From assembly GCA_039586365.1 (NCBI GenBank), contig JBDHKN010000089.1:1-38126 (forward strand): 38,126 bases of DNA. Reading direction: 5' to 3'. This DNA is from Gemmatimonadota bacterium (GTDB lineage: Bacteria; Gemmatimonadota; Gemmatimonadetes; Gemmatimonadales; GWC2-71-9). A model generated the notes under the pieces. The model had not been told where the DNA came from. It worked only from the letters and a program-made list of their open reading frames with translations, and searched no databases. Each line of letters starts with the position of its first letter. Position 1 is the first letter of the stretch. This document shows, piece by piece, positions 1,977-25,405 of the stretch. A program made the position numbers and the translations under genes.

Positions 1977-2767
1977 TCTTCGCAGCGGACCGAATCTCGT
2001 TCCGGTATCCTGGTACCGAGGGTGTCTCCGCCGTCAACGACGTCAGTTTGTCGATTGAGGCAGGCGAGTTGACTGGAATCGTGGGGCCCAATGGAAGTGG
2101 CAAGACGACGCTGTTGCGCCTGCTATTGGGTGTGCTCGTTCCCTGCAAAGGCGAGGTAACTGCGTTCGGACGGCCAGCCTCTGGCTGGAAGCGGCGTGAG
2201 CTGGCCCGAATGATCGGTGTTGTTTCGCAGCGAGAAGAGCCGGCTTTTCCGCTCAGAGTGAGACAAGCCGTACTCTTCGGCCGATATGCCCACCTTGGGC
2301 CTCTGGGCTCACCGGGTGAGGCCGATAATGCCGCTGTTGAGCGAGCACTTGACCGATGTGACGTACGCCACCTCGCCGACAGGTGGGTAGAGACGCTGTC
2401 GGGTGGGGAATGGCAACGGGTGCGAATCGCTCGCGCGCTGGCCCAGGAGCCTCGAGCACTCGCGCTGGATGAGGCTACAGCGAATCTCGACATCCGTCAT
2501 GAGATGGAGTTGTTCGAACTAACCTCTCAGTTGGTCAACGAAGGTCGGTTTGCAGGAGTCCTTGTCACCCATCAGGTCAATCTCGCAGCGCGGTTTGCCG
2601 ACCGACTGGTCGTGATGGATCAGGGAACCGCCTGCGCAATTGGCCGACCGAACGAAGTGCTGACTAGAGACGTGCTGGAAAGAGTCTTTCATTGGCCAGT
2701 CACCATGACTGAATGGCGTGGATGGCCGCAGTTCATTCCCCTGAGAAAAGACGAGTTTGAACGGTGA
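1964..2767 (+). CDS. btuD: ABC transporter ATP-binding protein (BtuD/FepC-like)
   Basis: Walker A GPNGSGKT, signature LSGGE, Walker B LALDE and H-loop VTH. Start placed at ATG 1964 (or GTG 1973), overlapping the btuC end, not at 1796. Confidence 0.85.
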   Translation: MGEVIFAADRISFRYPGTEGVSAVNDVSLSIEAGELTGIVGPNGSGKTTLLRLLLGVLVPCKGEVTAFGRPASGWKRRELARMIGVVSQREEPAFPLRVRQAVLFGRYAHLGPLGSPGEADNAAVERALDRCDVRHLADRWVETLSGGEWQRVRIARALAQEPRALALDEATANLDIRHEMELFELTSQLVNEGRFAGVLVTHQVNLAARFADRLVVMDQGTACAIGRPNEVLTRDVLERVFHWPVTMTEWRGWPQFIPLRKDEFER

Positions 2768-2865
2768 TATGTTGTGCGAACCCGACTCGACTGTCGCGTG
2801 AGGACCACACACGCTTTGGTAGCAACCACAGGTCCCCTCTCGCGGTGGGTGTGGAGACACCTGAC

Positions 2866-4863: not shown

Positions 4864-4982
4864 GCGCGCAGCAACGGGAGCTGACCGGTAGCGGAGCGCG
4901 ACAACGTCATCAATCCCACGTACCGCCATATCCTGCGTAACCCGGAGCTGTCGCGCGGTCACTCTGTACCTATCTTTCGCAC

Positions 4983-5747
4983 ATGACTATCGTTGCTACG
5001 CCGGCAGTAGTACTGCACTCTTTCAAGTACAGCGAGTCTTCCAAGATTGTTCGCCTTGCGACGAGGGATCTGGGCGTGCAGAGCGCGATCGCCAAGGGAG
5101 CGTCCAAGGTCAAGAGCAAGTTCGGGGCTAGGCTCCAACTGCTGAGCGAAGGGGTGGCCCAACTCCACATGCGATCGAACCGCGACTTACAGACGCTCGC
5201 CGAGTTCGACGTCACGAAGCAGCGTCCGGGATTGACGAAGGACATTGCCCGTTACGCCGCGGCTGCTGCTTTGGGGGAGCTCGTACTGAGAGTCGCACCG
5301 GCCGAACCGAACGCTCAGATCTACGATTGTCTCGTCAGTGAATTGGATCATCTGGCAAGTGCGGCCGATGATCGGGTCGACGCTGTTGGAATCGCTGCCA
5401 TGTGGCGCGCAGTTAGCGTCCTCGGTTTTGCCCCGGCGATCCACGACTGCGCAAGGGACGGACGTCACGTTCCCTCTGGGGCAGCGACGTTTTCTATTGT
5501 GGACGGTGGCTTTCTCTGTGCCTCGTGTGCCGCGGATTCACACGGACCCACACTGCACTCAGAGGATCGGGCGGCACTTGAGAGGCTAGTCCAGGGTGAC
5601 ACGGAGTCACTACCACCCATTCCGCCCCGACATGCTGCGGCACACCGGCGACTGCTCGCTCGGTTCGTTCAGCGACATGCCAGCGAGGACCAACAGCTCA
5701 ATGCACTGACGTTTTGGGAGACATTGCCGTGGAACGTCACGTCGTAG
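4983..5747 (+). CDS. recO: DNA repair protein RecO
   Basis: N-terminal OB fold (VLHSFKYSESSKIVRLATRDLG...AKGA...SKFGARLQ) and C-terminal zinc-finger-like CARDG...GGFLCASC. Confidence 0.92.
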   Translation: MTIVATPAVVLHSFKYSESSKIVRLATRDLGVQSAIAKGASKVKSKFGARLQLLSEGVAQLHMRSNRDLQTLAEFDVTKQRPGLTKDIARYAAAAALGELVLRVAPAEPNAQIYDCLVSELDHLASAADDRVDAVGIAAMWRAVSVLGFAPAIHDCARDGRHVPSGAATFSIVDGGFLCASCAADSHGPTLHSEDRAALERLVQGDTESLPPIPPRHAAAHRRLLARFVQRHASEDQQLNALTFWETLPWNVTS

Positions 5748-7624
5748 TTGGGACCGCTGGGCATGTCGATCACGGCAAGACCTCGTTGGTGAAGGCTCTC
5801 ACGGGTACAGATACGGATCGCTGGGAAGAAGAAAAGCGGCGCGGCATCACTATCGATCTTGGCTTCGCGGTTCTGGAGTTGGGATCTGGGTTGACGGCCA
5901 GCATTGTCGACGTACCGGGGCACGAGGACTTTGTCCGCAACATGGTGGCGGGCGCGACGGGGATAGACCTAGCTTTGCTGGTAGTTGCGGCGGACGAGGG
6001 TGTGATGCCACAGACCTCAGAACACCTCGCCATCCTGGAGTTTCTAGGGGTGAAGGCCGGTGTTGTTGCCATCACTAAATGTGATCTGGCTGATAGTGAA
6101 TGGCTGGAATTGGTGAAGGAAGACCTGGTTGAACGGCTCACCGGATCTGCTGTGGCTTGGCAGAGTGTTGTTGTGTGCTCCGTGATCGATGGCCGCGGTA
6201 TCGATGAGTTGCGAGACACTCTGTCATCTGTTGCCGGATCGATCGCTGTCCGATCCCGAGAGGACCTGTTTCGGCTGCCTGTGGACCGCATATTCAGTGT
6301 GGCCGGGGCCGGAACTGTGGTGACCGGGACCACATGGAGTGGTACCGCTCGGGTGGGAGACGAAGTCCGGGTGCTGCCTGGCGATCATCGGGCGCGCGTC
6401 CGAGGGATTGAGGTGCACGGCCACGCCTACGATGCCGCTGTGCCCGGTCGTCGCACCGCTCTGGCACTCGCCGGGATCGGACGCCGCGACATTGCGCGTG
6501 GTCACGTGGTTGTTGCCGGCGACCACTGGCGCGAGAGTCACTCAGTCGACGTGATCATCACTTTGCTCCCCGCATCACGGCCGATCACCCAACGGTCGAG
6601 AGTACGATTTCACGTCGGGACAGCAGAAGCTCTCGCACGGGTGACACCGGTCCACTCGGAGATCGAACCGGGGTCCGTAGGGAAGGCGCGATTGAGGTTG
6701 GAGACACCCTTGGTGTGTCGCTGGGGTGATCGCGCAGTGATTAGATCTTATTCTCCTGTGACCACTATCGGCGGATGCGTGGTGGTTGATCCTTGGCCGC
6801 CGAGTCGGCCACGCAGACCCGTGCGCCTGGACGAGAAGGCAGCACTGGACCCCACAGTCCGCCTGAAGGCGTTCGTCGATGTAGCCGCTGAAGTTGGGGT
6901 GTCTCCGGACGAGCTGCCCGTCAGGCTCGGAGTTGTCCCCGGTGAAGTGGCGAGAGTTATCAAATCGGCCGCCGACGTCATCCCAACGAGTCCGCGTCTC
7001 TTGGCTCGGCGGGTGATTGATGCGGCGCGCGACGCAACATTTGGGGCCTTAGCGGATTATCACCGGAAGAAACCCCTAGATCCGGGGATGCCCCGCGAGT
7101 TGCTGCGCCAAGTCGTGCGGGACGAAAGTCTTGCCGAATACGTGCAACAATCTCTGAACGAAGCAGGGCAAGTCACTATTGAGGGCCAGACCGTCCGATC
7201 GGCCGGTCATCGACCCACCCTGACCGATGAGCAAGCTGAAGCTGGCCGGAGGGCGCTGGCAGAGCTCAGGACTGCTGGTGCGCTTGGCAGATCGGTGGCT
7301 GAATTGGGGGGCACACTACCGGCGATCGCAGACCGGGACCTGCTGGAGTTCTATGTGCGGCAGGGAGCTATCGTCAGGGTGGGTAAGGACCGATACTATG
7401 ACAAGACAGCTCTGGACCAAATAATGCTACGGATTCTGCAGGAGATTGATCGACTGGACCGAGCGTCGCCGGGGCAGCTACGAGCGAAGACCGGACTTAC
7501 TCGCAAATACCTGATACCGCTGTTGGAGTGGATGGACGTTCATTCACTTACGCAGCGAGACGGTGACACCAGAGGCCTTGGACCGGCTGCCGTCCAGTTT
7601 CTCAACCAGGTTGACAGTAGTTGA
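5729..7624 (+). CDS. selB: Selenocysteine-specific elongation factor SelB
   Basis: GTAGHVDHGKT, EEKRRGITIDLGF, DVPGHEDF, MPQTSEH and C-terminal winged helices ending TRKYLIPLLEWMD. Likely start GTG 5729 after GGAG. Confidence 0.95.
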   Translation: MERHVVVGTAGHVDHGKTSLVKALTGTDTDRWEEEKRRGITIDLGFAVLELGSGLTASIVDVPGHEDFVRNMVAGATGIDLALLVVAADEGVMPQTSEHLAILEFLGVKAGVVAITKCDLADSEWLELVKEDLVERLTGSAVAWQSVVVCSVIDGRGIDELRDTLSSVAGSIAVRSREDLFRLPVDRIFSVAGAGTVVTGTTWSGTARVGDEVRVLPGDHRARVRGIEVHGHAYDAAVPGRRTALALAGIGRRDIARGHVVVAGDHWRESHSVDVIITLLPASRPITQRSRVRFHVGTAEALARVTPVHSEIEPGSVGKARLRLETPLVCRWGDRAVIRSYSPVTTIGGCVVVDPWPPSRPRRPVRLDEKAALDPTVRLKAFVDVAAEVGVSPDELPVRLGVVPGEVARVIKSAADVIPTSPRLLARRVIDAARDATFGALADYHRKKPLDPGMPRELLRQVVRDESLAEYVQQSLNEAGQVTIEGQTVRSAGHRPTLTDEQAEAGRRALAELRTAGALGRSVAELGGTLPAIADRDLLEFYVRQGAIVRVGKDRYYDKTALDQIMLRILQEIDRLDRASPGQLRAKTGLTRKYLIPLLEWMDVHSLTQRDGDTRGLGPAAVQFLNQVDSS

Positions 7625-8468: not shown

Positions 8469-11102
8469 ATGATAAGGCCCGAGCGTCTAACGATCAAAGC
8501 TGGAGAGGTGCTACGGGATGCCCAGTCGTTAGCCGTGGACAGGGGTAACCCGGTTATCAACGACCTCCATTTGTTCCAGGCTTTGCTGAGCCAGGAGGAG
8601 GGAATCGTCGTGCCGGTGCTTCAGAAGTCCGGGCTGAACGTAACCGAGCTCCGAAGCGAAACGGAAAGAGAAATCGACCGTCTCCCGTCACAGAGCGGAG
8701 GCAGTGCCCAGCCCACCATGGCCAGGGAGTTGGTCGACACGCTGGCTGCGGCGGACGTTTTGGCCAGTGAGTTGGGCGACAGCTATGTGTCAACCGAGCA
8801 CCTGCTGGTCGGGTTGGTCGCCACCCGGGGTACTACGGCGCAGCAACTCCTCACTGCTCGCGGGATCGACAGGGCACAACTGCTCCAGGCGCTGGAGCAG
8901 GTCCGGGGCAGCCATCGTGTCAGTGATGTTGAGCCGGAAGGCAAATACCGTGCGTTGGAACGATACACTAAGGACCTCACCGATCTTGCACGAAAAGGAA
9001 GGCTGGATCCGGTGATCGGACGGGATGAGGAGATCCGCCGCGTGATCCAGGTTCTGTCACGCCGCACCAAGAACAACCCTGTTCTCATCGGCGACCCGGG
9101 TGTCGGCAAGACCGCGGTTGTGGAGGGACTTGCCCAACGGATCGTCAACGGAGATGTGCCTGAACCGTTGCGAGGCAAGCGGATCATCTTGTTGGACATC
9201 GGACAGTTGCTGGCCGGTGCAAAGTACCGAGGAGAATTCGAGGAGCGCCTCAAGGCCGTGCTGAAGGAAGTGACCAGCGAGGAAGGGCGTTTCATTGTCT
9301 TCTTGGATGAGCTGCATACGATTGTGGGTGCTGGTGCTGCTGAGGGCGCAGTTGACGCGTCCAACATGCTGAAGCCAGCGTTGGCACGCGGTGAGCTACA
9401 TATGGTCGGAGCGACGACACTGGACGAGTACCGCAGGCACCTTGAGAAGGACAAGGCCCTCGAGCGGCGGTTCCAGCCCGTGTACGTAGGTGAACCGTCC
9501 GTAGAGGACACTGTCGCGATACTGCGTGGGCTCAAAGAGCGATACGAAGTACACCACGGTGTACGCATCACTGACAGCGCGATCATCTCAGCCGCCACAC
9601 TGTCAGATCGCTATCTGGGTGAGCGTAAGCTGCCTGACAAAGCGATCGACTTGATCGACGAAGCAGCGAGCCGACTGAGGATCGAGATCGACAGCTTGCC
9701 GCAGGAGATCGATGAAGTGGAACGGCGCATGATCCAGCTGCGTATCGAGGAACAGGCCCTCTCCCGCGAAAGAGATCCGGCAAGTGAGGAGCGTCTCGAT
9801 TCTGTGAAGAAGGAGCTCGCCGAGCTGAATGAGCAAGCACAGAGCATGAAGGCTCAGTGGCAAGCTGAGAAGGACTCCATTAGGCGATTGCGGGAGAAGA
9901 AGGCGGAACTGGAGGAACTGCGCCTCACAGCTGAGCAGGTCACCAGGGATGGTGATCTGCAGAAGGCAGCGGAGATCCGGTACGGGAGCGTTCCCGAGTT
10001 GGAACGGGAGATCGAAGTTGAGAAGAGGCGGCTTGACGAGATCCAGGGCAAGGCGAAGTACCTCAAGGAGGAGGTAGAGGCACACGACATTGCAGAAATC
10101 GTGTCGCGGTGGACAGGTATCCCGGTAAGCAAGATGATGGAGTCGGAGCGGGAACGTCTCACCGCGCTCGAGGTAGAATTGGCCCGTCGAGTCATCGGGC
10201 AACAAGAAGCTCTAGCGGCAGTATCGAACGCCGTCCGTCGCGCGCGTGCAGGGCTGCAAGATCCCAACCGACCGATCGGCAGCTTCATCTTCCTGGGACC
10301 GACAGGAGTGGGCAAGACCGAGACCGCTCGGGCGCTGGCTGAGTTTCTGTTCGACGACGAGCGGGCATTGGTGCGGCTGGACATGTCGGAATACATGGAG
10401 AAGCACGCTGTCGCACGCATGATTGGAGCACCTCCTGGATACGTGGGTTACGAAGAGGGAGGACAACTCACCGAAGCCGTCCGGAGGAGGCCATACTCAG
10501 TGATACTGTTCGATGAAATTGAGAAGGCTCACCCGGATGTGTTCAACATGCTGTTGCAGATACTCGATGATGGGCGGCTCACCGACAGCCAGGGCCACCA
10601 CGTGGATTTCCGGAACGCCGTTGTCATCATGACCTCGAATATTGGAAGTCAATGGATTCTCGAGTTGCAGGGTCAGCAGGATGAGGCCGAGCGACGGGTG
10701 CTTGAAGCTCTGCGGCAGACTTTCAAGCCGGAGTTTCTCAACCGTGTGGACGACGTAATAGTATTTCACCAACTGTCCCGCGAGGATCTGGCTGCGATTG
10801 TCGAGTTGCAGCTGGACAGACTGCGGCAACTGTTGGCCGCCCGGGGCCTTGGTCTTGAAATGACGCCAGAAGCCAAGGAGTTCCTGGTTGCAGAAGGCTA
10901 CGATGCGGTCTACGGAGCGAGGCCGCTGAAGAGAGCTATTCAGCGACTGATTCAAAATCCGTTGGCCCTTGAGATGCTCGAGGGTGGATTCGCAGACGGC
11001 GACGTAGTACGCGTTGTCCGTTCAGCCGACGATAAGCGACTGGAGTTCACCAGCGCTTTAGCCAGGCAGCGGGAGTCGGCTCATGGTGCCACCGCTTCCT
11101 AG
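8469..11102 (+). CDS. clpB: ATP-dependent chaperone ClpB
   Basis: Clp N-domain, two AAA+ modules ([16 protein letters not shown]), long coiled-coil middle domain and [13 protein letters not shown]; 877 aa. Confidence 0.97.
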
Positions 11103-11580
11103 ACAGCCCTCGCTGAACGACATCGACCGATTGGGCATGGAGGCGGCGCTGGAGGAAGCCAGGATCGCCGCGCGGATCGGTGAAGTGCCTGTTGGCGCTG
11201 CGATAGTCGTTGGACACGCTGTTGTATCCAGTGCGCATAACTCGACTGTGAGCCTCAACGACCTGACGCAGCACGCTGAACTGATGGCCATACAACAGGC
11301 GCTTGCCGCGATGCCCAGTGATCGACTCGAGCGTGCAACGCTCTATGTGACACTCGAGCCGTGTGCCCAGTGTGCGGGGACGATCCTACTCTCGCGGGTG
11401 GGTCGAGTCTTGTTTGGCGCCTACGATCCCAAGGCTGGAATGGCGGGGAGCGTGGAGGACATCTTGCGGCATCCGAGTTTGAATCACAGGCCGGAAGTGC
11501 GCGGCGGTGTGATGGAAGATGAATGCAGAGCGCTGCTGAGGAGTTTTTTCGAGAGTCGTCGTGGTAAAGCTGACCAATGA
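11083..11580 (+). CDS. tadA: tRNA adenosine(34) deaminase TadA
   Basis: [27 protein letters not shown] and LLRSFF motifs. Confidence 0.88.
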
Positions 11581-11865
11581 TCGGAGAGCAGACCGGTCAC
11601 GGCATCCGTTGTCCCTTTCCTGATATGGGGCTAGCTTATTAGACCTGCCATCTTACCGGTGAGCCGAGCGTGAATGGGTGATCTTCGTCGTAGCCCATCC
11701 GTTGCGCTTCCGGGCTGTTGCGCTCTCCCTCGTTGAGTAGGTAGCGGTGGTGTTGGAGTGGCTCCGACAGTGAAGCTGAGGGGGAAGGCTAGCACTCGGT
11801 AGTCGACAATCACGCAGCATGGTTCTACTTAGTACCGGTATTTCAACCTATTCGATGGTGACTCG

Positions 11866-12951
11866 ATGGTGGTACAGAAGATTTGCTCTAATCATTGGGT
11901 AACATGCCTGGCGGTGACTGCGTTGTTCGTCCCGACGGTGCTAACGGGGTGTGAGCAGACTGGGAGCTACTCTGATGGCAAGGCATACGGTGTCGCATTT
12001 GATTCCGAGGTGCTCGCCGTATTGGGTGGTGACTCCATCACCATGGAGGACCTCCCCGATGAGGTGGGAAGCCGACTCGCTGCCATCGAATTCGGGTATA
12101 GGACGCGCAGGTATCAGGCCCTCGAGGCTGCCCTACGCAACGTGGTCAGAGAACGGCTGCTCGAGAGAGAAGCTGCCGCTCGTGACATTTCACCTGGAGA
12201 GCTGCTTGCGGCCCAAACCGACGGCAAGATCAATGTAACCGAAGAGGACGTGGCTACGTGGTATAGACGCAACCGCTCACGGCTAGAAGGCAGGGGGTTG
12301 AGTGAACTGTCAGTCCAAATCCGCCGGTTCTTAGAGGAGCAGGAACTGACCAGGGTGATGGATTCGTTCTTGGCGGAGCTGGAGGATCGAGAAAATGTAG
12401 TGTATCTACTCGAGCCGGCACGAGCCAACCTCGATAACAGTGGGGCGCCGACACTGGGACCGGACGATGCGCCCGTTACCGTCACCGAGTTCTCTGAATT
12501 TCAATGCCCGTACTGCAGCGTCTTCATGGAATCCTTGTACCAGCTGAGAGACAACTACGGCGACAAGGTCCGAATCGTGTTCAGACACTTCCCATTGGAG
12601 ATCCATCGTGATGCCTTCAAGGCCTCCGAAGCGTCGATGTGTGCCCTAGAGCAGAACCGTTTTTGGGAAATGCACGATCTGCTCTTTGCCGAGCAACGCA
12701 ATCTGGCAGTGGGGGATCTCAAAGAGAAGGCGAGACGACTAGGCCTGGATCAGGACGCTTTCGACGAGTGCCTTGAGTCGGGACGCTACGAAGAGAAGGT
12801 CCGCCGCGACATGGCCGAAGGACAGAACTTTGGCGTGGAGGGGACGCCTGGAAGCTTCGTGAATGGGATTGCGGTGTTGGGAGGGGCCTTGCCGTACGAA
12901 ATGCTAGCGGAGCTGGTTGAACAGGAGCTGCGACGACTGGATCGCAACTGA
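11866..12951 (+). CDS. DsbA/thioredoxin-domain lipoprotein with SurA-like N-terminal helical region
   Basis: Lipobox LTGC; EFSEFQCPYC active site, FRHFPL and GVEGTP. Confidence 0.85.
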   Translation: MVVQKICSNHWVTCLAVTALFVPTVLTGCEQTGSYSDGKAYGVAFDSEVLAVLGGDSITMEDLPDEVGSRLAAIEFGYRTRRYQALEAALRNVVRERLLEREAAARDISPGELLAAQTDGKINVTEEDVATWYRRNRSRLEGRGLSELSVQIRRFLEEQELTRVMDSFLAELEDRENVVYLLEPARANLDNSGAPTLGPDDAPVTVTEFSEFQCPYCSVFMESLYQLRDNYGDKVRIVFRHFPLEIHRDAFKASEASMCALEQNRFWEMHDLLFAEQRNLAVGDLKEKARRLGLDQDAFDECLESGRYEEKVRRDMAEGQNFGVEGTPGSFVNGIAVLGGALPYEMLAELVEQELRRLDRN

Positions 12952-13001: not shown

Positions 13002-13856
13002 TTACCCGTTCTCAGCCGAGTTCATCTTACCCACCACGACCGTGACATTGTCCCTGCCCCCTCCCTCCAGGGCAGCGTCCACCAGCTGCTCACAAGCAGT
13101 CTTGGCGTTGGGAGTGCGCTGCAAGATCTCGGCAATGCCATCGTCTCCCACATGCCTGGTCAGGCCGTCTGTACACAGCAGCATAACGTCATTCCATTCC
13201 AGATCAATCAGGCCTACTGACGGTAGGATCTCGGCACCTATTGCGCTGGAGAGCGTGCTGCCCAGACTGCTTCGTTCTACCTGCTCTTCCTTCATTATGC
13301 CTTCGTCGATCATCAACTCGCCCATTGTCTGGTCACGGGTGAGCTGCCTGAGCCGTCCCTTGCGGAGGTAGTAGGCCCGGCTGTCGCCCACATGGATGAT
13401 GTAAGCGCGGGGCCAGATCAGAGCGACCATCGTAAGCGTAGTTGCCGGTCCCTTGCCGTGGCTGGAGTATTCTCTCTGGACCGTCTTGTGTGCATGCTGA
13501 ACAGCGTTTTCCAGATTCTCTAGGAACTCGTTTTCACCTTCTACGTCGAAGCTGTAGTAGCACCCCATTGTGCGTCCTATGTATGTGCCCAACGCTTGCA
13601 CTGCCGTACCACTAGCGAGACGTCCGCCACCGATGCTTCCCACACCATCAGCGACGACGAACAAATGGGCCTCAGATTGCTTCAGGTGATCGAACGCGTG
13701 CACGTTGTCTAGGTTGGTCTGTTGTACTGTCAGGGCCTTGGTTGCCGCAGCGAGGAAGAAATGATCTTCATTCACCTCCCGTACTTTACCTACATGGCTC
13801 ATCCCGTAGGCGTCGATCGAACCCTTGAGCTTGAAACGGTCGCTGTCGTCGGTCAT
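13002..13856 (-). CDS. PP2C-family Ser/Thr protein phosphatase
   Basis: GKVREVNED, VVADGVG, HVGDSRAY, LLCTDGL and GGRDNVT motifs. Confidence 0.92.
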   Translation of the reverse strand: MTDDSDRFKLKGSIDAYGMSHVGKVREVNEDHFFLAAATKALTVQQTNLDNVHAFDHLKQSEAHLFVVADGVGSIGGGRLASGTAVQALGTYIGRTMGCYYSFDVEGENEFLENLENAVQHAHKTVQREYSSHGKGPATTLTMVALIWPRAYIIHVGDSRAYYLRKGRLRQLTRDQTMGELMIDEGIMKEEQVERSSLGSTLSSAIGAEILPSVGLIDLEWNDVMLLCTDGLTRHVGDDGIAEILQRTPNAKTACEQLVDAALEGGGRDNVTVVVGKMNSAENG

Positions 13857-13871
13857 CTTGCTACCGATGTC

Positions 13872-14369
13872 TCAGGACTTGATTGTTGCTGCTGCCAACC
13901 AAAGAAATGCTTCTTCCACGCCTTCTCCTGTTTTCGCACTGGTGCCTAAGGCATGGAGGCCATGATCAGATAGTGTGTCATAATCGTCGGTCCTGAGCAG
14001 CCATTGGTCCGTCAGATCCTTCTTGTTGAGGGCGACTGTCGTGGGAACGTCACCCACTGTCTCGTGAGCCATCTCGTGGAGTGCATACAACTGTTCTAGC
14101 GTTTCGCGTCGCGTGCCATCTACTACGTAGAAGAGGCCGCCTGACCCCCTCAGGTAGCTGGCTGGCACGTCCTGGAATTCATCCTTCCCAGCAAGGTCCC
14201 ACAGCAGGAGATTGACGGTAGTCCCTTCCACCTCGACTTGCTTCCGATCGATCTTCACGCCGACCGTAGAGTGGTATTTCTCCGAGAACTTGGAATACAC
14301 GAATTTCTGGACCAGACTCGTCTTGCCAGTGGCGAACATACCCACCATGCAGATCTTCTTCTGGATCAC
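13872..14369 (-). CDS. Rab-like small GTPase (Ras superfamily), stand-alone G domain
   Basis: G1 GMFATGKT, G2 STVG, G3 WDLAG, G4 NKKD and G5 TSAKTG; 165 aa. GTG start overlaps the upstream stop (GTGA). Confidence 0.9.
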   Translation of the reverse strand: MIQKKICMVGMFATGKTSLVQKFVYSKFSEKYHSTVGVKIDRKQVEVEGTTVNLLLWDLAGKDEFQDVPASYLRGSGGLFYVVDGTRRETLEQLYALHEMAHETVGDVPTTVALNKKDLTDQWLLRTDDYDTLSDHGLHALGTSAKTGEGVEEAFLWLAAATIKS

Positions 14370-16168
14370 TCTTGTGTGCCTCCCCTGTCTGTGCCAAAGG
14401 TTACCCTAACCAAGAAGGAAACACTACGGTTGATGCGGGCCTGGTCCGTCGCTGCTGTCGAGGAAAGAGGATCGGATGTTCCGATGCCGACTGCGTTCAT
14501 AGCTGCTCCTGGGATCCCCCGTCCTGCCAAGATACTACTCACGCCGTCTGCCCGTTGCTGGCTAAGGAGTCGGTTGGTCTCGTTCGATCCGGTAGTATCG
14601 GTGCGGCCGACAATGTTGAGTGCCGCTGCGTAGTTGCGCTCTTCTGCAATGCCCCGGAGGCGTTGGAATGCAGTGGCAACCTCATCCAAGACCCCTCTGG
14701 CGGTTGCGTCCAGCGTCACTGATCCAATGGCGAACTGGATCCGGTGCTGCTCCACTTCATCTTTGAGCTCCGCTAATTCAGGTGGCAAGATCTCAGTGAC
14801 ACCGGAGACGTCGACGGTTGTTACACCAGGAGGCAGGGGTCCGCTCCGGACCAATCCTGCGATCCACTCTGGCGTAGCAGATCCGCCAGCGTAAAGCGTA
14901 TCTCCACGCAGTCCCAGAGCAACACTCGCGGGTGGATCGAGCATCCGGTTTGCTCGCGCTAGGACCAGACTCGGTTCGAACGAAACATAGGGTCTCCATC
15001 TGGCCTCGATCCGCGTCGTGTCCAATCCCATTCGAGCGAGCAAGCGCATCGGTTCAGCTGCAGCCGGGTCGAGCAAGCCAGACAAGCGCCACGTCCGCCA
15101 GCCCCGCTCAGGCTCGATCAACACTATCCCTGGTTCGTTCTCGAGCACAGTCAATGCTGCGCGCCACCGTTGGGCTGAGCGGAGGGCGAGAGTGGTGAGA
15201 ACGACTATGACCAGGATTGTCACCACCCAGGCAATCCGCGGGGCTAGGCCAAGGCTGGTCGGACGGTCGGTGGCGACTACCGTCTGGAGACACTCTTGTA
15301 GGAGCGACCGCGTGGATTCGAACGGTGCAGCGTCGCCATCGAAATCCACTAGGGGGTTGGTGAAGTGCAGGTGGATTGTCTCCAGTGTAGCTTGTAGTTG
15401 CTCGAGGACGCTCCCTGGAGGTTGCCCGCTCACCACGGCAGCGATGTGAGCTTGCGGTCCTTGCTCCACCAACACGGTTCTTTCCCCAACTTCGAAGGTG
15501 CGGAGGTCTCCTTCCTCCTCCGAGCCCGCGTCGAAAGAATCCTGCACGAAATCGCGGATTGCAGTCATCATGCTGGAGATGAGGTCGGCGTCCTGCGCAG
15601 GTATGCCTTCAGCGGTCACCTCGGCCAGCAGCAGGCCTGTTTCCGCATGTATCAGCAAGACCTGCTCGACACGATAGACCAGCGCATATTTGACCACGAT
15701 CTGTGCGAATGGGACCCCGGTGCGCCACGCTTCGATGCGCCACTTGAGGCCCTTCAAGGAGAGGCTATGCTCGATGGCGCGATTGATCGTGTTGACGATC
15801 CCGGCCATGGTCTCGCCGATCGCCTTGCGAATCGCCGGTCCCAGAATCGGGAATATGGCGTGCGCAATATTCTGAGGGTTGCGTCTTACGGATTCGCTGA
15901 AAGCGTCCTGCAAAGTGGGGGCCAGAGAACGGGCTAGCTGTTTGTCCCTGGCGGTTCGCAGGGCAACAGCATCGGGGAGCTTGTCGGCTAGCTCTGCGGG
16001 GGTCAAGCTCAGTTCGTCGAGCCGTCGCTCCAGTTCCTCCAACCGTCTCCGTTCCTGACCGACCAAGAGCCGGCGCAGCTCGGTGAGTCCGCTCGGACCT
16101 TGCTTGACGTCGGGAGCAGTGTCGGATTCTTCCGGCAATGGATCGACCTTGCCGCCGTCTTCGGGCAC
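14366..16168 (-). CDS. Membrane protein: N-terminal coiled coil, predicted longin-like domain, single TM helix, periplasmic OmpA-like peptidoglycan-binding domain
   Basis: OmpA_C motifs IVGRTDTTGSNETNRLLSQQRA, GIGTSDP and NRSVSF; TM IAWVVTILVIVVLTTLAL (aa ~312-329). The longin call is inferred from the strand/helix pattern. Confidence 0.8.
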   Translation of the reverse strand: MPEDGGKVDPLPEESDTAPDVKQGPSGLTELRRLLVGQERRRLEELERRLDELSLTPAELADKLPDAVALRTARDKQLARSLAPTLQDAFSESVRRNPQNIAHAIFPILGPAIRKAIGETMAGIVNTINRAIEHSLSLKGLKWRIEAWRTGVPFAQIVVKYALVYRVEQVLLIHAETGLLLAEVTAEGIPAQDADLISSMMTAIRDFVQDSFDAGSEEEGDLRTFEVGERTVLVEQGPQAHIAAVVSGQPPGSVLEQLQATLETIHLHFTNPLVDFDGDAAPFESTRSLLQECLQTVVATDRPTSLGLAPRIAWVVTILVIVVLTTLALRSAQRWRAALTVLENEPGIVLIEPERGWRTWRLSGLLDPAAAEPMRLLARMGLDTTRIEARWRPYVSFEPSLVLARANRMLDPPASVALGLRGDTLYAGGSATPEWIAGLVRSGPLPPGVTTVDVSGVTEILPPELAELKDEVEQHRIQFAIGSVTLDATARGVLDEVATAFQRLRGIAEERNYAAALNIVGRTDTTGSNETNRLLSQQRADGVSSILAGRGIPGAAMNAVGIGTSDPLSSTAATDQARINRSVSFLVRVTFGTDRGGTQE

Positions 16169-16170
16169 TG

Positions 16171-16761
16171 TCAGTTGCTCTCCTGTGACGCTTGGAGGTC
16201 TTCGGACAGGTGCAGCGCGACGTCCGAAAACAGCTGGATGAGCGTAGCAGTATCCAACTTCTCGCCCCTCAGTTCCAGCACCGCCCGCTGCAGCTCACTG
16301 GACAGATCACTGGAAAGCTGGTTGATCTGGCTCGCTGTGGATTTGGAGTACTCCAAGATCGCTGTCCGCAGCTCGGCGTCTGCTTTGCTCGTCGAGTCAT
16401 CCAAATTGGCCACCCGCTTCTCGAAGGTGCTCACAGTCTCTTTCAACTCTGCTGCCAGGGCCTTGCCATCCTCTGCTCGCTTGGCTCGTTCACCTGCCAG
16501 TCTTTCACCCAGCGCATCGATCTCCTTCTTGATGTATGACTCGGTGTCGCTCAGCTGTCTCTGGGTGTCGACGCGGAACGCGGTCAGCTCTCGCTGAAGA
16601 CGTTCCTCGAGGCTCGCGAGTCGAGCATCGACGGCCCGCATCTGTCCTCCGAAGAGGATGTCTCTGACCTTGTCGAGGCTCTCCGGCGTTTCCCCTGGTC
16701 CAGCTTCCTCGGGGGCTCGTGAAATCGCAGCCTTCTTCCGTGGGTTATTGGTTCTGGTCAT
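16171..16761 (-). CDS. Uncharacterised coiled-coil protein, first gene of the GTPase operon
   Basis: 196 aa, E/L/A/R-rich heptads, motif SLDKVRDILFG; stop lies 2 nt before the next start. Confidence 0.75.
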   Translation of the reverse strand: MTRTNNPRKKAAISRAPEEAGPGETPESLDKVRDILFGGQMRAVDARLASLEERLQRELTAFRVDTQRQLSDTESYIKKEIDALGERLAGERAKRAEDGKALAAELKETVSTFEKRVANLDDSTSKADAELRTAILEYSKSTASQINQLSSDLSSELQRAVLELRGEKLDTATLIQLFSDVALHLSEDLQASQESN

Positions 16762-16977: not shown

Positions 16978-19258
16978 CTAGAACTCGTATTCGAGACCGA
17001 TTATCGGTAGCGTGCTCCATTGATAGACGATGTCCGGCCCATTCTCGAGTTCATTCCAGTAGTACGAGGCCACGTTCTTTCGATTGTACGCGTTCCACAC
17101 GCTAGCGTACACAATCAAGTTTGATCCGCGGAAGTGAAAACGCCTGTCGGCCCGAATGTTGAGGGAGTGGTAGTCGGGATATCGGGCCTCGTTGATCTGG
17201 CTCTCGTCCAGAACTGCGTGATTCAGGGCGGTCGATTGATCGAGATCAAAGGGCGTATAAGGAGATCCTCCAGCGTAGATCCAACGCGCACTGAACTCCC
17301 AGGTGCTGCTCGGTTTGTATCCACCCTCCAGGCTCAGAACCAGACGGTTGTCGAACACCCTGTCTCTCCAAATCACGTCGCTACCCATGTAGTGCGATCT
17401 GAAGTAGGATACGCTCGCTAGTCCATACAGCTGATGTACGAGGCGCTTTTGGACGGTCGCTTCAATCCCGGTGGTCCGGGCTTTACCGACAGCGGATAGC
17501 CGCTCGTGGTTGAGGAAGAACCCGTAGCGGTAGAACAGCTCATCGATGGTGAACAACGCTGGCTGCTGTGGATCGATCGGGAACTGCGCGTATTCTTTGC
17601 GATACATCTCCAGGGTGAGTTTCGTTTGGTCGGTGAGCAGATGTGTTAGTCCCAGCACGCAGTGAATGGCCCGGGGATCAGGGAGTTCCCGGTTCGCCTC
17701 GTTCTGGGAAAGCAGTATCGATGGGAGGCTCTGATAGTAGAGACCTGTAGCTCCAATCACCGTGGTTCTGTCATCAAGTCGATATGAGAAAGAGAGTCTG
17801 GGTGACAGGTGCCTGTTGTGACTATAGGAGTGGTAGTCGGCCCTCACGCCGATTGTGGCGGTCAGACGGTTCGCAGGTCGCACAGTGTAGCTGGCAAAAG
17901 CGCTGACTTTGCTCTCGTTCGTTGTCGTTTCCAGGATCATCTCGGGTGTGGCGCCACCGAGAGCGTCTGTGTACTCGGCGTAGAAGTTGTCATACGCGGC
18001 CTGAACGTGCTTCGCCTCGACGCCAAACTCGATCGAGTTGGTGCTATTGATTTCAAACGTATTCACATTGCGTAGCGTAGCGGTCCATTCTGAGGAGCGG
18101 TTCGTTATCAAGTGTTGCCCGGATGACGTCTCGTTGAAGTACTCATCGTATTCGCTCGAAGTGTACGACAAAGACGTATTTGAGACGCCACCACCCCAGA
18201 GAGCACGCGTTCTCAACAGCCACAGCACTGTCGGAGTGCATTTGGTCGTATCCCATTACACCTAACAGCATGAGCTTGTGGTTGGGGCTGAAGTCATACA
18301 CGAGCTTTCCCTGGTAGTCACCGTAGCGCGGTGCGACTGTAGAGCCGACATCTGCCAACTTGATGATCAGGTCCAGGTAGCTTCTGCGAGCTGAGAGGAG
18401 CCAAGCTCCCCTGCCACTGCCGAGGGGACCTTCTGCCACCCCACCGAAACCGGCGAAGTTGAGATCCAGTTGACCGTCGAACTCGTTGCGATTGCCCTCG
18501 CGAAGCTTGATGTCCATGACGGAAGAGAGGCGGTCCCCGTAGCTGGCGGAAAACCCACCGGTGCGGAAGCTCACGTCCTGGATGAAGTCCACATTCAGAA
18601 GGCCGATTGCGCCCCCCGAGGTTCCCTGAGTAGGGAAGTGATTGACGTTTGGTATCTCCACATTGTCGACAAAGAATGCGTTTTCGATCGGACTGCCGCC
18701 GCGGACGATGAGACTGTTGCTTTGATCATTGATCTTGGCGACGCTTGGAAGCGTTGCCATAATCCGGCTCACGTCACCAGCTGATCCGGGGGCGCGACGG
18801 ATCTCCTCACCCGAATAACCAGTGATGCTGGTCGGCTGTTTTTCTTCGTCGGGGAAGTAACCACTTACAACGACTATGCCGTCTAGTTGCACAGGCAGCC
18901 GCTCGAGTTCGACGTCAACAAATGTGATCCGGTTCGGCCGGACGATGACGTCGGGTCGCGCCAGCGGCCGGTACCCGATCATCCTGAATTGGACCGTGTA
19001 GCTGCCGAGGGGCACGCCCTCGAGAGTGAACCAGCCGTCACCTCCGGTGTTGGACACTAGTTCTGTCCCGTCCAGACTCACTGCCACTCCCGGGAGAGCG
19101 GTCCGGGGCTTTCTGCTGTGGACCTGTCCCTTCACGGTTCCAGTCGGCTGGCTCTGTCCCACCACCGATGAAGTCGATGGCTGTGCTTGTGTTGGCAGGA
19201 GAAGGAGGGTGGAGAGCCAGCAGGCGACTCGTGTCACAACCTGGCTGTGATATCTCAT
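16978..19258 (-). pseudogene. TonB-dependent receptor with N-terminal carboxypeptidase-regulatory-like domain, disrupted near 18205
   Basis: The 5' ORF (ATG 19258) has a signal peptide, GTVKGQV...PGVAV and plug VRGGSPIENAFFVD, GGFSASYGDRLSSV. The 3' ORF is a beta-barrel ending LEYEF. The frames switch at ...AVEN/RALWGGG; span 2281 nt = 3n+1. Confidence 0.8.
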
Positions 19259-19337
19259 CTCGGTTTCCTCGAATGTCGTAGGGTCCGGAGCGCCTCCGGC
19301 CCGGGCGACACCCGGAACGTCGGACCAAAGCGTGCGA

Positions 19338-19395
19338 CTAAATCGATTGTTTGAAACATACGTTAGAATCATATTGCGGGGCCATCCGTTGTCAA
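19338..19395 (-). promoter_or_regulatory. Promoter of the TonB receptor with an adjacent putative TetR operator
   Basis: Minus strand TTGACA(19395-19390)-N16-TATGAT(19373-19368), followed by CTAACGTATGTTTCAAACAATCGATTTAG (19366-19338). Confidence 0.6.
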
Positions 19396-22127: not shown

Positions 22128-22517
22128 ATGTCTGCATCCACGCACATCGATCTCAGTCGCCGTGAGCGCCAGATCATGGACGTGATCTACGCCAGCGGTT
22201 CTGCCACCGTCCGCGACGTCATGGACGGTGTCCCCGATCCGCCGAGTTATTCGGCAGTGAGGGCGATGCTCAGGGTGCTGGAAGAAAAGGGACATGTCGA
22301 ACATCGACACGACGGCCCTCGTTACGTCTACGTTCCGACCGTGCCGCGTGCCCAAGCCAGCGAATCCGCTATGAAACAGATGCTGCGCACCTTCTTTGAT
22401 GGCTCGGCGGAGCGTGCCGTTGCGGCTCTGCTTGATATGTCCAGTTCCGATCTCTCCGAGGTAGAGCTTGATCGTCTCGCTGCGCTGATTGAGCAGGTGC
22501 GGAAGGAGGGGAGGTAG
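22128..22517 (+). CDS. BlaI/MecI/CopY-family repressor
   Basis: LSRRERQIMDVIY, SYSAVRAMLRVLEEKGHV and TFFDGS motifs. Confidence 0.92.
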   Translation: MSASTHIDLSRRERQIMDVIYASGSATVRDVMDGVPDPPSYSAVRAMLRVLEEKGHVEHRHDGPRYVYVPTVPRAQASESAMKQMLRTFFDGSAERAVAALLDMSSSDLSEVELDRLAALIEQVRKEGR

Positions 22518-22519
22518 CG

Positions 22520-25405
22520 ATGCATACGGTGATTTCTGCCACGCCTTTACTGGTGATGAGAGTAGACCTGGGTGCCGAGTTCGTGCTGAGTCTCGGTGCC
22601 AAGAGTGTAATCATCCTGCTGCTCGCGAGTGCGGCGGTCGTTACGCTGCGGAACTCTTCCGCTGCGGTTCGCCACCTCGTCTGGAGCACCACGCTCGTAG
22701 GTCTGCTGGCGTTGCCGATGTTGGTGCTGGTGGTTCCCGAATGGATCACGCCAGCGATCGGTACCGTTGTGTGGCCGGATCTGGACAGAGCAGAAGCACC
22801 CCGAGCTGCATCTCATGCGGCCCCCGCACTTGGCGCCGCAGCCGCGCAGGATATCTCGTCTGCTGGGGTGCCAAGCCTGGCTCTTGTGCCAGCAAGCGAG
22901 CCAGCTCGGGTTGCCATCACACGCACGCCTGTAACCGAGCTGGGTGCTTCGAGCGAGAACGCCCTACTAGGTGCCTCCGTTCGGTCGGCGGCCGCAGTCG
23001 GAATCTTGGGCGCGCTCGGCGGTGCCACCTGGCAGTCTTGGCTCTTCTTGGGATGGCTCGGCGGAGCTCTCTTGATCTTTGCCTGGATCGGCGTGGGCTA
23101 CTGCGTCACTTGGTGGCTGGAACGGTCCTCCCGCGTTGTTGTTAGTGGTCCCGTGCATGCTCTTGTAGATGAACTTGCAGAGGAACTCGATCTTCGCCGG
23201 ACCGTGACTCTGTTGCAGACAGATCTGCATACGATGCCCAGGACATGGGGCCTCCGACCCAAAGTGCTGTTGCCGGTTGACGCTGATGATTGGAGTGACG
23301 TGCGGCTGCGAACGGTTCTGCTACACGAGTTGGCTCACATCAAGCGGCGCGACTACCTGACACAGATGCTGGCACACGTGGCCGGGGCGCTCTACTGGTT
23401 CAACCCGTTGGTGTGGTACGCCTCGCGACGGATGCGCATTGAGCGCGAGCGTGCATGCGACGACCGGGTGCTGAACGCAGGTTCCAAAGCGTCGGACTAT
23501 GCGGAGCATCTATTGCACATCGCGCGCTCAATGAAGGTGAGCGTTCTCGCATCGGCGACTAGCGTAGCAATGGCGAGGCGCTACCAACTCAGCAACAGAT
23601 TACTGGACTTGCTGGACGGCGAGCGGCGCCGCTCGATCGTGTCACCGAAGGTAGCGGTGGTCGCATGGACCGTTGCGGCTGCTGTGGTCATACCGGTTGC
23701 GGGAGCAGCGAGCGCACCAGAAACACATGCCGAGAACGATGGGGTCTCTATTAGAGGAACAGCCTCCAGGGTTACTGAGGCGGCGGAGCCTGCCGGCCGC
23801 ACGGAGAATTTGATGCGTCTCACCGGGGCTACACCGCGCCGCGCCGCTGCGGGTGCGCGGCAGGATGACCACCTGACTGATGTCCAAGTTGTCCAACAAT
23901 GCGACTGGTACCGGCGGGGAGCTAATACGGCTACATCGATGAACGTGAACGACGACCTGCTCCAGATCAGCATCAGGATGGACGACTGCCAGCTCAGTAT
24001 CGTGGCCGTCGGTGAGATCGAGTTTGACGAAGCGGAGACGGACATCACCTACATCGCTCCGGATGGAATGTTCGAGATCGAGGAGCGGGAGGGACGTACG
24101 TGGTCACGTCTTCGGATCGCGCCGACGGAGGGAGCGGCTCTCGAGCGCCGGTGGTTTGTTGACGGCGAGGAGAGATCCTACGATCGCGAAGCTCAGGAGT
24201 GGTTTTCGGGTTTGCTCCCCCTGGTGTTCCGCCGCGCTGGATTTCAGGCTGAGGAGCGCGCCGCACGCCTACTCAAGCGGGACGGTGTGGACGGACTGTT
24301 GCAGGAGATCTCCCTGATCCCCAGCGATTACACCGCTCGCAAGTACTTCGAGGTATTGCTCACACAAGCTGATCTGAGCGAGCAGCAAATTCGTGAGGTT
24401 GTGAGGCAGGCTGGGAAGGAGATCGATTCGGACTACGAACTAGCCGAGTTGTTGATCGGCATGGCGCATTCGCATCCCGTGGATGAGGCTGTGCAGGTCG
24501 CTTACATCGAAGCGGCTCAGACCATCGACTCGGACTACGAGACCCGCCGAGTGCTCAACGTGATTCTGGATCGGCCGGGGTTGAGCGCAGCAGTAGCGCG
24601 CGGCATGCTGCAGTTGGCGATGGAGATCGATTCCGACTATGAGCTGGCCGAGTTGTTGATCGGAATGCTCGACAGACACCCGGTTGAGGAGGCGCTCACA
24701 CCTGAGTTCTTCGCCGCGCTCGGGACGCTTGACTCTGATTACGAGCACAGTAGAGTGCTCCAGGCAGCCCTGCAGAGAGGTGCTCCCAGCCGCCGGGTGT
24801 TGGATCTCGCGCTGGAGTCGGCATCCCGTCTGGATTCGGACTACGAGTTGGCCGAGCTGTTGATCCAGGTCGGTGAGCTCTATCCAACGGGTCAGACCAT
24901 ACCGGACTCTTACCTTGGGGCCGCGCGCTCGATTGGATCTGACCACGAGCGCAGGAGAGTGTTCAGCGTGCTCGTTGAGCGCGATCGGCTGAGCGTAGAG
25001 TCGTTGGAGCAGTTGCTCGATGCCGCGATTCTTATAGACTCGGACTACGAGTTGGCTGGACTCCTGGTGAATGTGCTTGAGGCATACGAGTTTGACGGCT
25101 CGACATACGAGGCGCTCTTCCGTGCGGTGAGCGCGCTCGACTCCGACTTCGAGCGATCACGGGTGTTGCAGACGGTGCTGAACGAGAGGTCGCTGACCGA
25201 CAGGACTGTAGAGCTGGTCCTGGATGCAGCGAGTTCCATGGACTCCGACTATGAACTGTCGACGGTTCTCCTCAAGGTGGTCGAGAGCCACACATTGAAT
25301 GAGCGTCTGCGCCAGATATTCATCGATGTAGCTGGGAGCATCTCATCTGAGTACGAGCGGGACCGAGTGTTGGCGATGCTTGTTAGAAACGGCGGTGTTG
25401 ACTAG
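22520..25405 (+). CDS. BlaR1-like M56 metallopeptidase with a C-terminal helical-repeat extracytoplasmic domain
   Basis: SAAVRHLVW, HELAH zinc motif, YWFNPLVW and ERERACDD; starts 2 nt after the blaI-like gene. Confidence 0.9.
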   Translation: MHTVISATPLLVMRVDLGAEFVLSLGAKSVIILLLASAAVVTLRNSSAAVRHLVWSTTLVGLLALPMLVLVVPEWITPAIGTVVWPDLDRAEAPRAASHAAPALGAAAAQDISSAGVPSLALVPASEPARVAITRTPVTELGASSENALLGASVRSAAAVGILGALGGATWQSWLFLGWLGGALLIFAWIGVGYCVTWWLERSSRVVVSGPVHALVDELAEELDLRRTVTLLQTDLHTMPRTWGLRPKVLLPVDADDWSDVRLRTVLLHELAHIKRRDYLTQMLAHVAGALYWFNPLVWYASRRMRIERERACDDRVLNAGSKASDYAEHLLHIARSMKVSVLASATSVAMARRYQLSNRLLDLLDGERRRSIVSPKVAVVAWTVAAAVVIPVAGAASAPETHAENDGVSIRGTASRVTEAAEPAGRTENLMRLTGATPRRAAAGARQDDHLTDVQVVQQCDWYRRGANTATSMNVNDDLLQISIRMDDCQLSIVAVGEIEFDEAETDITYIAPDGMFEIEEREGRTWSRLRIAPTEGAALERRWFVDGEERSYDREAQEWFSGLLPLVFRRAGFQAEERAARLLKRDGVDGLLQEISLIPSDYTARKYFEVLLTQADLSEQQIREVVRQAGKEIDSDYELAELLIGMAHSHPVDEAVQVAYIEAAQTIDSDYETRRVLNVILDRPGLSAAVARGMLQLAMEIDSDYELAELLIGMLDRHPVEEALTPEFFAALGTLDSDYEHSRVLQAALQRGAPSRRVLDLALESASRLDSDYELAELLIQVGELYPTGQTIPDSYLGAARSIGSDHERRRVFSVLVERDRLSVESLEQLLDAAILIDSDYELAGLLVNVLEAYEFDGSTYEALFRAVSALDSDFERSRVLQTVLNERSLTDRTVELVLDAASSMDSDYELSTVLLKVVESHTLNERLRQIFIDVAGSISSEYERDRVLAMLVRNGGVD
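24320..25390 (+). repeat. Eleven tandem ~34-aa DSDYE repeats (102-nt period) within the M56 gene
   Basis: Units start at 24320, 24425, 24527, 24629, 24731, 24833, 24935, 25037, 25139, 25241 and 25343, alternating DSDYELAELLI and DSDYExxRVL types. Confidence 0.9.

Follow-up and report, generated by a model that had tools for sequence, protein, structure and literature searches.

What a small GTPase resembling the Rabs of eukaryotes does in a bacterium, beside a membrane protein with a peptidoglycan-binding domain and a protein phosphatase, is the question raised by a four-gene locus of a Gemmatimonadota bacterium (assembly GCA_039586365.1, contig JBDHKN010000089.1). The locus lies at positions 13002 to 16761 of a 38,126-nucleotide (nt) stretch, the whole of which is called the window below. 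The four open reading frames (ORFs), all on the minus strand, encode DUFY (196 aa, 16171..16761), DUFX (600 aa, 14366..16168), the Rup GTPase (165 aa, 13872..14369) and a stand-alone Ser/Thr phosphatase of the PP2C (PPM) family (284 aa, 13002..13856). DUFY and DUFX are separated by 2 nt, DUFX and Rup overlap by 4 nt (GTGA), and Rup and PP2C are separated by 15 nt; in this the ORF coordinates agree with an earlier description made from the letters of the DNA, referred to here as the sequence-only reading. The cassette is likely to be a trans-envelope small-GTPase signalling system of the Group 1 Rup kind that has been rewired to Ser/Thr phosphorylation, its interactions and their direction being what we infer.

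A known GTPase neighbourhood with a variant fourth gene

The core of the locus is almost certainly the neighbourhood of Group 1 Rup GTPases, which Wuichet and Sogaard-Andersen (Genome Biol Evol 2014; PMC4316618) predicted from genomics only; statements about that paper refer to its main text and the supplements searched. Group 1 Rups lack the catalytic Gln of the G3 motif, are the prokaryotic GTPases most similar to Rab, Ran, Ras and Rho, and none had been characterised in 2014. Their neighbourhood holds a coiled-coil protein, a protein in which an unknown domain is joined through a transmembrane (TM) segment to OmpA, and a module for output, which is usually a diguanylate cyclase/phosphodiesterase or else a histidine kinase. 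A signalling system was proposed in which an invariant Gln in the N-terminal part of the output serves as a trans-acting GTPase-activating protein (GAP) residue. The window cassette resembles this description in its coiled-coil DUFY, its DUFX-TM-OmpA protein, a Ras-like GTPase of 160-180 aa without the G3 Gln, and a signalling enzyme in fourth place, and the order DUFY>DUFX:OmpA>Rup agrees with rows of Table S2 of the paper. It differs in its fourth gene, which encodes a PP2C standing alone, with no N-terminal region that bears the invariant Gln, and because its output has no Gln domain we regard the cassette as a variant, not as a canonical Group 1 system.

A wholly new system is ruled out by PMC4316618, and the cassette, which the sequence-only reading had put forward as a candidate system, belongs to a neighbourhood already described there. 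The word phosphatase is absent from the main text of that paper, PP2C and SpoIIE are absent from the supplements searched, and no Gemmatimonadetes genome is among the 27 Group 1 rows of Table S2. Mesorhizobium loti is listed among the Group 1 members, and a Mesorhizobium plasmid carries a copy of Rup with 51% identity and the same gene order. In the literature searched, with subscription papers and bioRxiv supplements mostly outside reach, no experimental study of a Group 1 Rup cassette and no paper naming DUFX a longin was found; PMC7159879, in the part available, concerns other systems.

Distribution of the cassette and its output genes

DUFX loci were collected from genome contigs by exact peptides of the query DUFX, giving a biased and Variovorax-rich set of 66 that spans Gemmatimonadota, Acidobacteriota, Bacteroidota, Verrucomicrobiota, alpha-, beta- and gamma-proteobacteria and one archaeal partial match. 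By profile, DUFY, DUFX, Rup and an output gene stand in this order in 61 of the 66, so the grouping is not due to chance. As anticipated by the sequence-only reading, three genes form a conserved core, to which a signalling enzyme that varies in kind is added as the fourth. DUFY is present in 63 loci. The five incomplete loci comprise two cut by contig ends, one with a truncated DUFX and a piece of PP2C, one DUFX without neighbours and the archaeal match.

The output gene of the 61 complete loci carries the N-terminal invariant-Gln domain in 53 (counted with a profile built from 24 of these same 53 outputs) and is a PP2C in 8; the two occur together in none. The Gln itself is invariant in all 24 aligned outputs of other loci, and the 17 Gln-domain outputs that were scanned are histidine kinases, GGDEF-EAL proteins, a class III cyclase, a sigma-54 activator, SpoIIE-type phosphatases, which serve as the output enzyme in other lineages, and PAS-only proteins. 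Metagenome loci picked with the window GTPase (n = 38, several of them near-copies) have a PP2C in 29 cases, the Gln domain in 5, neither in 4 and both in none. Within the phylum, the genomes with DUFX and those with Rup are the same 23 among 301, and loci fetched from 20 of the 22 other genomes have a PP2C after the GTPase in 10 and none in 10, one of the latter ending 133 bases past the GTPase.

The genes flanking the cassette vary between loci. As candidate parts of the system, the DsbA-like, TetR, ClpB and deaminase neighbours in the window were rejected, since they match in 0 of 19 PP2C-clade loci, and the neighbouring TonB receptor was rejected with a match in 1 of 19.

Several cassettes have other layouts. 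Two tandem Rup GTPases occur in sister cassettes (L105:4137-5171, L108:4000-5033 and L109, from genomes G122, G298 and G186), and two adjacent Rup matches likewise in G096 and G243. PP2C-less cassettes often have in front of them genes for a histidine kinase and a sigma-54 response regulator (L100, L104, L105, L107, L108, L109 and L165:4415-6851; the identities were Pfam-checked in L165 only), and some of them then have a lone receiver-like ORF. At L161:3167-6253 and L162:3142-6246, a second cassette consists of a gene for an Hpt-like protein, DUFY, Rup and a kinase that matches the Gln domain twice, next to a divergent sigma-54 regulator and with no DUFX close by. At L015:5869-7348 a shortened DUFX runs directly into a piece of PP2C, and GTPase and DUFY were not found there, possibly because of a deletion or misassembly. 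On the archaeal contig (L066), the match to the longin region of DUFX lies within an AAA_16/TPR protein (4497-6529), with a small GTPase nearby on the opposite strand (1837-2751).

The Rup GTPase

Rup matches Pfam Ras over residues 5-161 with 104 bits, as against 80 for Roc and 60 for Arf, and its G1-G5 motifs are intact, with G1, G2, DxxG, NKxD and SAK all present. Its best solved relatives are Rabs, Rab23 being the top match (E 6e-24). Aligned with Rab23 across residues 5-161, Rup shows one gap, a single residue long and close to the C-terminus, and it has no MglA-type insertion between G1 and G2; judged against the RabF1-F5 consensus, the likeness is partial in the segments of switch I, beta-3 and post-switch II and poor in that of switch II. 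Rab proteins carry a C-terminal hypervariable tail with prenylated cysteines. Rup has neither tail nor cysteine and ends four residues past the G domain (for Rab prenylation, see the available text of PMC4915359). The position of the G3 catalytic Gln is occupied by Lys62. A true Rab is ruled out by the missing tail and the missing Gln; the earlier description of a stand-alone Rab-like GTPase stands as regards the 165-aa G domain and its Rab relatives, the protein itself having the features of a Group 1 Rup.

The G3 Gln is absent from all 57 aligned genome Rup rows, a set that leaves out 28 redundant or partial loci. At this position the 19 PP2C-linked Rups have Arg (18) or Lys (1), and the 38 others have Glu (24), Ala (8), Arg (3), Asn (2) or Thr (1). 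Among 28 whole PP2C-linked GTPases from metagenomes the residue is Arg in 23, Lys in 3 and Gln in 2. The P-loop also distinguishes the groups, with Thr in 18 of the 19 PP2C-linked Rups versus Val in 38 of the 38 others. A second catalytic Gln in helix 3 was considered and rejected: Q93 is invariant in the 19 PP2C-linked genome rows, but the position holds Gln, Lys, Glu, Arg or Asp in metagenome copies.

The next-best GTPases in the window's genome match the Rup profile with just 27 and 19 bits. A GGAGG ribosome-binding site lies upstream of the Rup gene. The two PP2C-linked Rups with the canonical G3 Gln are those of L170:3498-7303 and L173:973-2023. Rup-family GTPases were also seen as orphans, away from any DUFY, DUFX or Gln-domain gene, at L163:5122-6486 (minus strand) and L164:4556-5218 (plus strand).

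DUFX joins a predicted longin domain to an OmpA-like domain

DUFX belongs to a large family (6481 representatives at E<=0.001, 2484 at 1e-30). Pfam, hydropathy and structure models predict a single-pass inner-membrane protein, and the sequence-only reading was right to describe a TM protein that links a cytoplasmic region to an OmpA-like domain. The one hydrophobic segment, residues 311-330 (15179..15238, minus strand, as are all DUFX coordinates here), has a Kyte-Doolittle value of 2.4 over 19 residues. The OmpA-like peptidoglycan-binding domain spans residues 479-581 (14426..14734; Pfam OmpA E 1e-12), and its model superposes on Pal with Z 17.0 and a root-mean-square deviation (rmsd) of 2.3 over 111 aligned residues. 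In its binding loop the Asp is present and G, N and R are invariant, N and R in 44 rows; we take the Asp and the Arg to be conserved peptidoglycan-binding residues. Residues 333-461 (14786..15172) model as two small periplasmic alpha/beta domains, with a predicted local distance difference test (pLDDT) value of 92.7 for the periplasmic part. The second of these is tentatively BON-like, its matches to BonA (Z 7.3), OsmY (7.2) and CdsD (7.2) falling under the level that separates kin from a common arrangement.

On the cytoplasmic side, residues 26-164 (15677..16093) model as long helices, with block pLDDT mostly 52-86 and invariant P107, R114, W143 and R144, and are likely a stalk for dimerisation or DUFY binding. 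They are followed by a domain (residues 165-298, 15275..15676), unassigned in the 2014 paper, that models as a longin fold on the basis of its topology, structural matches and conservation. Compared with 48,161 solved chains, the model is closest to the longin of VAMP7 (Z 13.2, rmsd 2.3, 116 aligned), followed by Sec22 (Z 12.7), CPLANE (12.6), AP-3 and TRAPP subunits (11.4), a Lokiarchaeota longin (11.0), MglB (10.8) and Mon1-Ccz1 (10.6). All 50 structural matches listed are longin, roadblock or adaptor-type chains or complexes containing them; the longin matches extend to about model residue 272, and the roadblock (MglB) matches end near 250. Foldseek concurs, and the longin label given to this protein in the sequence-only reading is thereby borne out at the level of models. 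The DUFX sequence has no Pfam longin match, and sequence identity in the structural matches is about 6-17%. In the single top helix (194-212), M200 is invariant in 63 rows and six positions are conserved to at least 90%, figures that the choice of loci by query peptides has inflated in part. According to the available text of PMC3747258, it is this face of longin and roadblock domains that binds the GTPase in solved complexes, the domains mostly being non-catalytic platforms.

A complex of two copies of DUFX(95-301) with one Rup was modelled with a score of 0.58 (runs 0.62, 0.58 and 0.58), versus 0.00 for the best control; the runs share at least 94% of contacts, and the partner pLDDT is at least 77. 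The mark used was reached by 116 of 157 solved complexes and by 2 of 215 mismatches, and at or below 0.60 lie only 18 of those 157 solved complexes together with both mismatches. The job was unlike the calibration set, DUFX dimerisation was unscored, and no interface was output. The model weakly supports the binding of Rup by a DUFX dimer. With this predicted DUFX-Rup contact the proposal that the wall-anchored protein acts on the GTPase becomes modestly more probable, and what it says of binding, localisation and the direction of signalling stays conjectural.

A PP2C clade dedicated to the cassette

The phosphatase matches Pfam PP2C_2 above cut-off (E 4e-14) and the NCBIfam Stp1-type PP2C model with 169 bits, below its cut-off of 230. 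The motifs NED, ADG, GDSR, TDG and GGxDN, to which we presume metal-binding roles, are kept across the alignment. A Gln-domain profile finds no match in the window PP2C nor in the window's genome (G000, 86% complete); in controls it detected the domain in two genomes with canonical cassettes and not in three genomes of the PP2C type.

In a tree of 58 PP2Cs, from which two short rows had been dropped, a branch (99/99) divides the 19 Rup-linked sequences from the 39 free paralogues, which come from 11 genomes. The PP2C-linked Rups form a matching group (100/100, stem 0.54) with subgroups similar to those of the PP2C tree, and the PP2C-linked DUFX proteins also group together (97/96). These data show that the PP2C link had one origin followed by joint inheritance, and that the PP2C clade is dedicated to the Rup cassette. 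All 18 clade relatives from genomes retain the PP2C, as do 28 metagenome loci whose GTPase is whole. The sequence-only reading took the PP2C as the output; it is not the general one, being confined to one lineage while other cassettes use other enzymes. The window's genome has 83 protein-kinase matches and four PP2C genes, three of them besides that of the cassette; a phosphatase output would therefore have substrates.

Three metagenome loci, each a single contig in which misassembly is possible, have the pair in other surroundings. L170 has the order Rup, PP2C, DUFY, DUFX; its Rup falls within the PP2C clade, its PP2C scores 406 bits with the linked profile versus 344 with the free one, and its DUFX lies outside the clade. 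Since the pair stands here before a DUFY-DUFX of another lineage, Rup and PP2C appear to move as a unit. L173 has a sister Rup followed by PP2C, with an unrelated gene upstream. In L177 the gene upstream of Rup-PP2C is for a protein kinase and lies on the opposite strand, and neither DUFX nor DUFY occurs within 4.4 kb. These arrangements argue against the PP2C being a passenger gene. An Arg or Gln GAP finger in the PP2C was also considered and set aside: the linked-specific R168 and Q192 fall at positions of ordinary PP2C residues.

DUFY

DUFY is predicted to be cytoplasmic, all-helical and coiled-coil-like, and would act as a scaffold or adaptor. Its Pfam matches are weak, of coiled-coil type and below cut-off, conserved motifs are present at both its N- and C-terminus, and its Atlas neighbours are unnamed bacterial clusters. 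Homology between the N-termini of DUFY and DUFX was rejected, the faint motif that they share (hhalign P 0.011, probability 3.9%) being a hint only.

Proposed mechanism and alternatives

We propose that Rup docks on the longin dimer of a wall-tethered DUFX, which biases the nucleotide state of the GTPase, that DUFY links the parts, and that Rup controls the dedicated PP2C, a reading whose chances we judge to be evenly balanced. DUFX would span the inner membrane, probably as a dimer, with the OmpA-like domain gripping peptidoglycan and the cytoplasmic longin domains offering Rup a docking platform of the sort that Rabs and MglA find in longin and roadblock dimers. Such a platform would set the position of Rup and bias its nucleotide state, and non-catalytic action, allosteric or like that of guanine nucleotide exchange factors (GEFs), would be likelier than that of a catalytic GAP. 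DUFY may serve as the helical adaptor joining Rup and DUFX. In canonical cassettes Rup would talk to the Gln domain of the output enzyme; in the PP2C lineage a dedicated PP2C would have taken the output slot, with Rup controlling its activity or position, and the state of the envelope would in this way be turned into dephosphorylation of kinase substrates. A bolder form is conceivable and rather doubtful: that one bacterial operon encodes both a Rab-like GTPase and a wall-anchored longin dimer serving it as GEF platform, a combination otherwise known from membrane traffic in eukaryotes, and that the GTPase directly controls a Ser/Thr phosphatase without a trans-acting Gln domain, using a basic residue (a restored Gln in two copies) at the catalytic position.

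Several observations weigh against this proposal. The DUFX-Rup model passed in the weak range and may owe its score to likeness to solved longin-GTPase complexes, and conservation at two DUFX motifs is inflated, since the loci were picked by those peptides. The PP2C lacks an additional domain to which Rup could bind, and the residues specific to its clade are for the most part ordinary in PP2Cs; as the link arose once, its many copies amount to one event. A Gln-domain gene could be missing from the assembly of the window's genome, given its completeness. The Gln domain was found in 3 of the 301 phylum genomes, each time directly after a second Rup gene, and in the two of these inspected the order is Hpt-like gene, DUFY, Rup and Gln-domain kinase, with no DUFX within 9.5 kb. 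Ten other phylum cassettes (one of them the incomplete locus) have neither PP2C nor Gln domain, and together with the second cassettes that lack DUFX they show that the output gene and DUFX are not always adjacent.

The phosphatase could instead regulate the module, dephosphorylating DUFY, DUFX or Rup after a Ser/Thr kinase while the real output lies in trans. We consider this unlikely, because the PP2C occupies the exact slot of the output enzyme and never stands alongside a Gln-domain output, even if its want of a partner-binding domain, the kinase-rich genome, the P-loop Thr gained in linked Rups and the kinase gene that adjoins the Rup-PP2C pair in L177 would suit it; with so many kinases in the genome, that adjacent gene is weak evidence. 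Similarly improbable, in our judgement, is that DUFX is a static landmark, its wall anchor merely fixing the module at a pole, septum or patch of old wall so that a positional switch like MglA/MglB localises the phosphatase. Its fold kinship with MglB and a periplasmic part made up of BON-like and OmpA-like anchoring folds only, with no recognisable ligand-binding domain, are as such a landmark would have them, but the outputs that replace one another (histidine kinase, GGDEF-EAL, cyclase, sigma-54 activator, SpoIIE) are signalling enzymes of a general kind and fit signal transfer at least equally well. The landmark and sensor readings of DUFX are not mutually exclusive, nor do all the alternatives considered here exclude one another.

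Rup might also act through DUFY, and the Gln domain where present, with the longin binding DUFY, lipids or another partner instead of the GTPase. In favour of this, there are DUFY-Rup-kinase cassettes that lack a neighbouring DUFX, the longins of SNAREs and adaptors (VAMP7, Sec22) rank highest among the structural matches, some longins have roles other than GTPase regulation (PMC10933270, in the part available), and DUFY and DUFX have the faint N-terminal motif in common. We nevertheless hold this to be quite unlikely, since the DUFX-Rup model passed its controls, weakly, and all Rup-bearing genomes among the 301 also hold DUFX. That the PP2C is a long-lived passenger, which filled the slot after loss of a Gln-domain gene and has no functional tie, seems very unlikely to us: its single origin, the sister phylum cassettes without such a fourth gene and the three other PP2C genes of the genome agree with it, but the PP2C has been kept in every clade relative while the flanks vary, and has travelled with Rup through rearrangement.

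Among known systems other than Group 1 Rup, MglA-MglB likewise has a small GTPase gene beside a partner of roadblock/longin fold. The window GTPase, however, is Rab-like and lacks the G1-G2 insertion, and DUFX, which is fused to an anchor in membrane and wall, shows the topology of a longin with two helices at the C-terminal end. The longin Rab GEFs of eukaryotes (Mon1-Ccz1/Ypt7, TRAPP/Ypt1, Fuzzy-Inturned/Rab23) and SRalpha/SRbeta also place a longin fold beside a Rab-related GTPase; they differ from the cassette in sequence (about 6-17% identity) and in that its membrane link is a TM helix with a peptidoglycan anchor, not prenylation, and the single longin gene allows a homodimer at most, unlike those GEFs. 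The actinobacterial conservon CvnA-D (PMC4316618) is a four-gene operon that also combines a membrane protein, a roadblock-type fold and a small GTPase, but its GTPase is of the MglA family, its MglB is free, its membrane protein is a histidine kinase, and it has no OmpA anchor and no PP2C.

Relative to PMC4316618, the longin assignment and the PP2C variant are new; further additions are the dedicated PP2C clade, the genome-wide Gln-domain search, the mobility of the Rup-PP2C pair and the finding that the catalytic position carries a basic or a restored residue. The longin fold makes the operon partner of Rup a candidate for the kind of regulator by which eukaryotes control Rabs. A 2013 review described prokaryotes as being without longin domains (PMC3747258, available text), and a 2024 Asgard study found GTPases hard to match with regulators, operons being rarely shared (PMC10933270). 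Here GTPase and longin partner stand in one operon, and small soluble proteins make the pair testable. Because the PP2C variant has no Gln domain, the switching off of the GTPase can be addressed directly, and the variant is a natural experiment on the idea of a trans-acting Gln. If the bolder form of the proposal is true, the cassette would offer a minimal, cloneable model in which the longin-Rab switch is tied to protein phosphorylation in bacteria.

Other observations in the window

Promoter and terminator scans gave 0 and 2 sites, versus shuffle means of 1.3 and 2.9, and were uninformative. In one RNA run (n = 1) the share of words was 0.05; two 151-nt contigs were exact matches to DUFX, and three short partial matches fell within PP2C, neither of which is proof of transcription.

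A TonB-dependent receptor at 16978-19372 (minus strand) is split into two overlapping frames, a 409-aa N-terminal part with the plug and a 416-aa barrel part, and therefore looks frameshifted or misassembled. The remaining neighbours examined (127-4863, 4983-7624, 8469-12951 and 22128-25405) are ordinary genes: an iron or cobalamin-type ATP-binding cassette (ABC) transporter with a TonB receptor, RecO, SelB, a deaminase, a DsbA-like protein, a ClpB-like protein (judged by sequence reading) and a BlaI/BlaR1-type pair.

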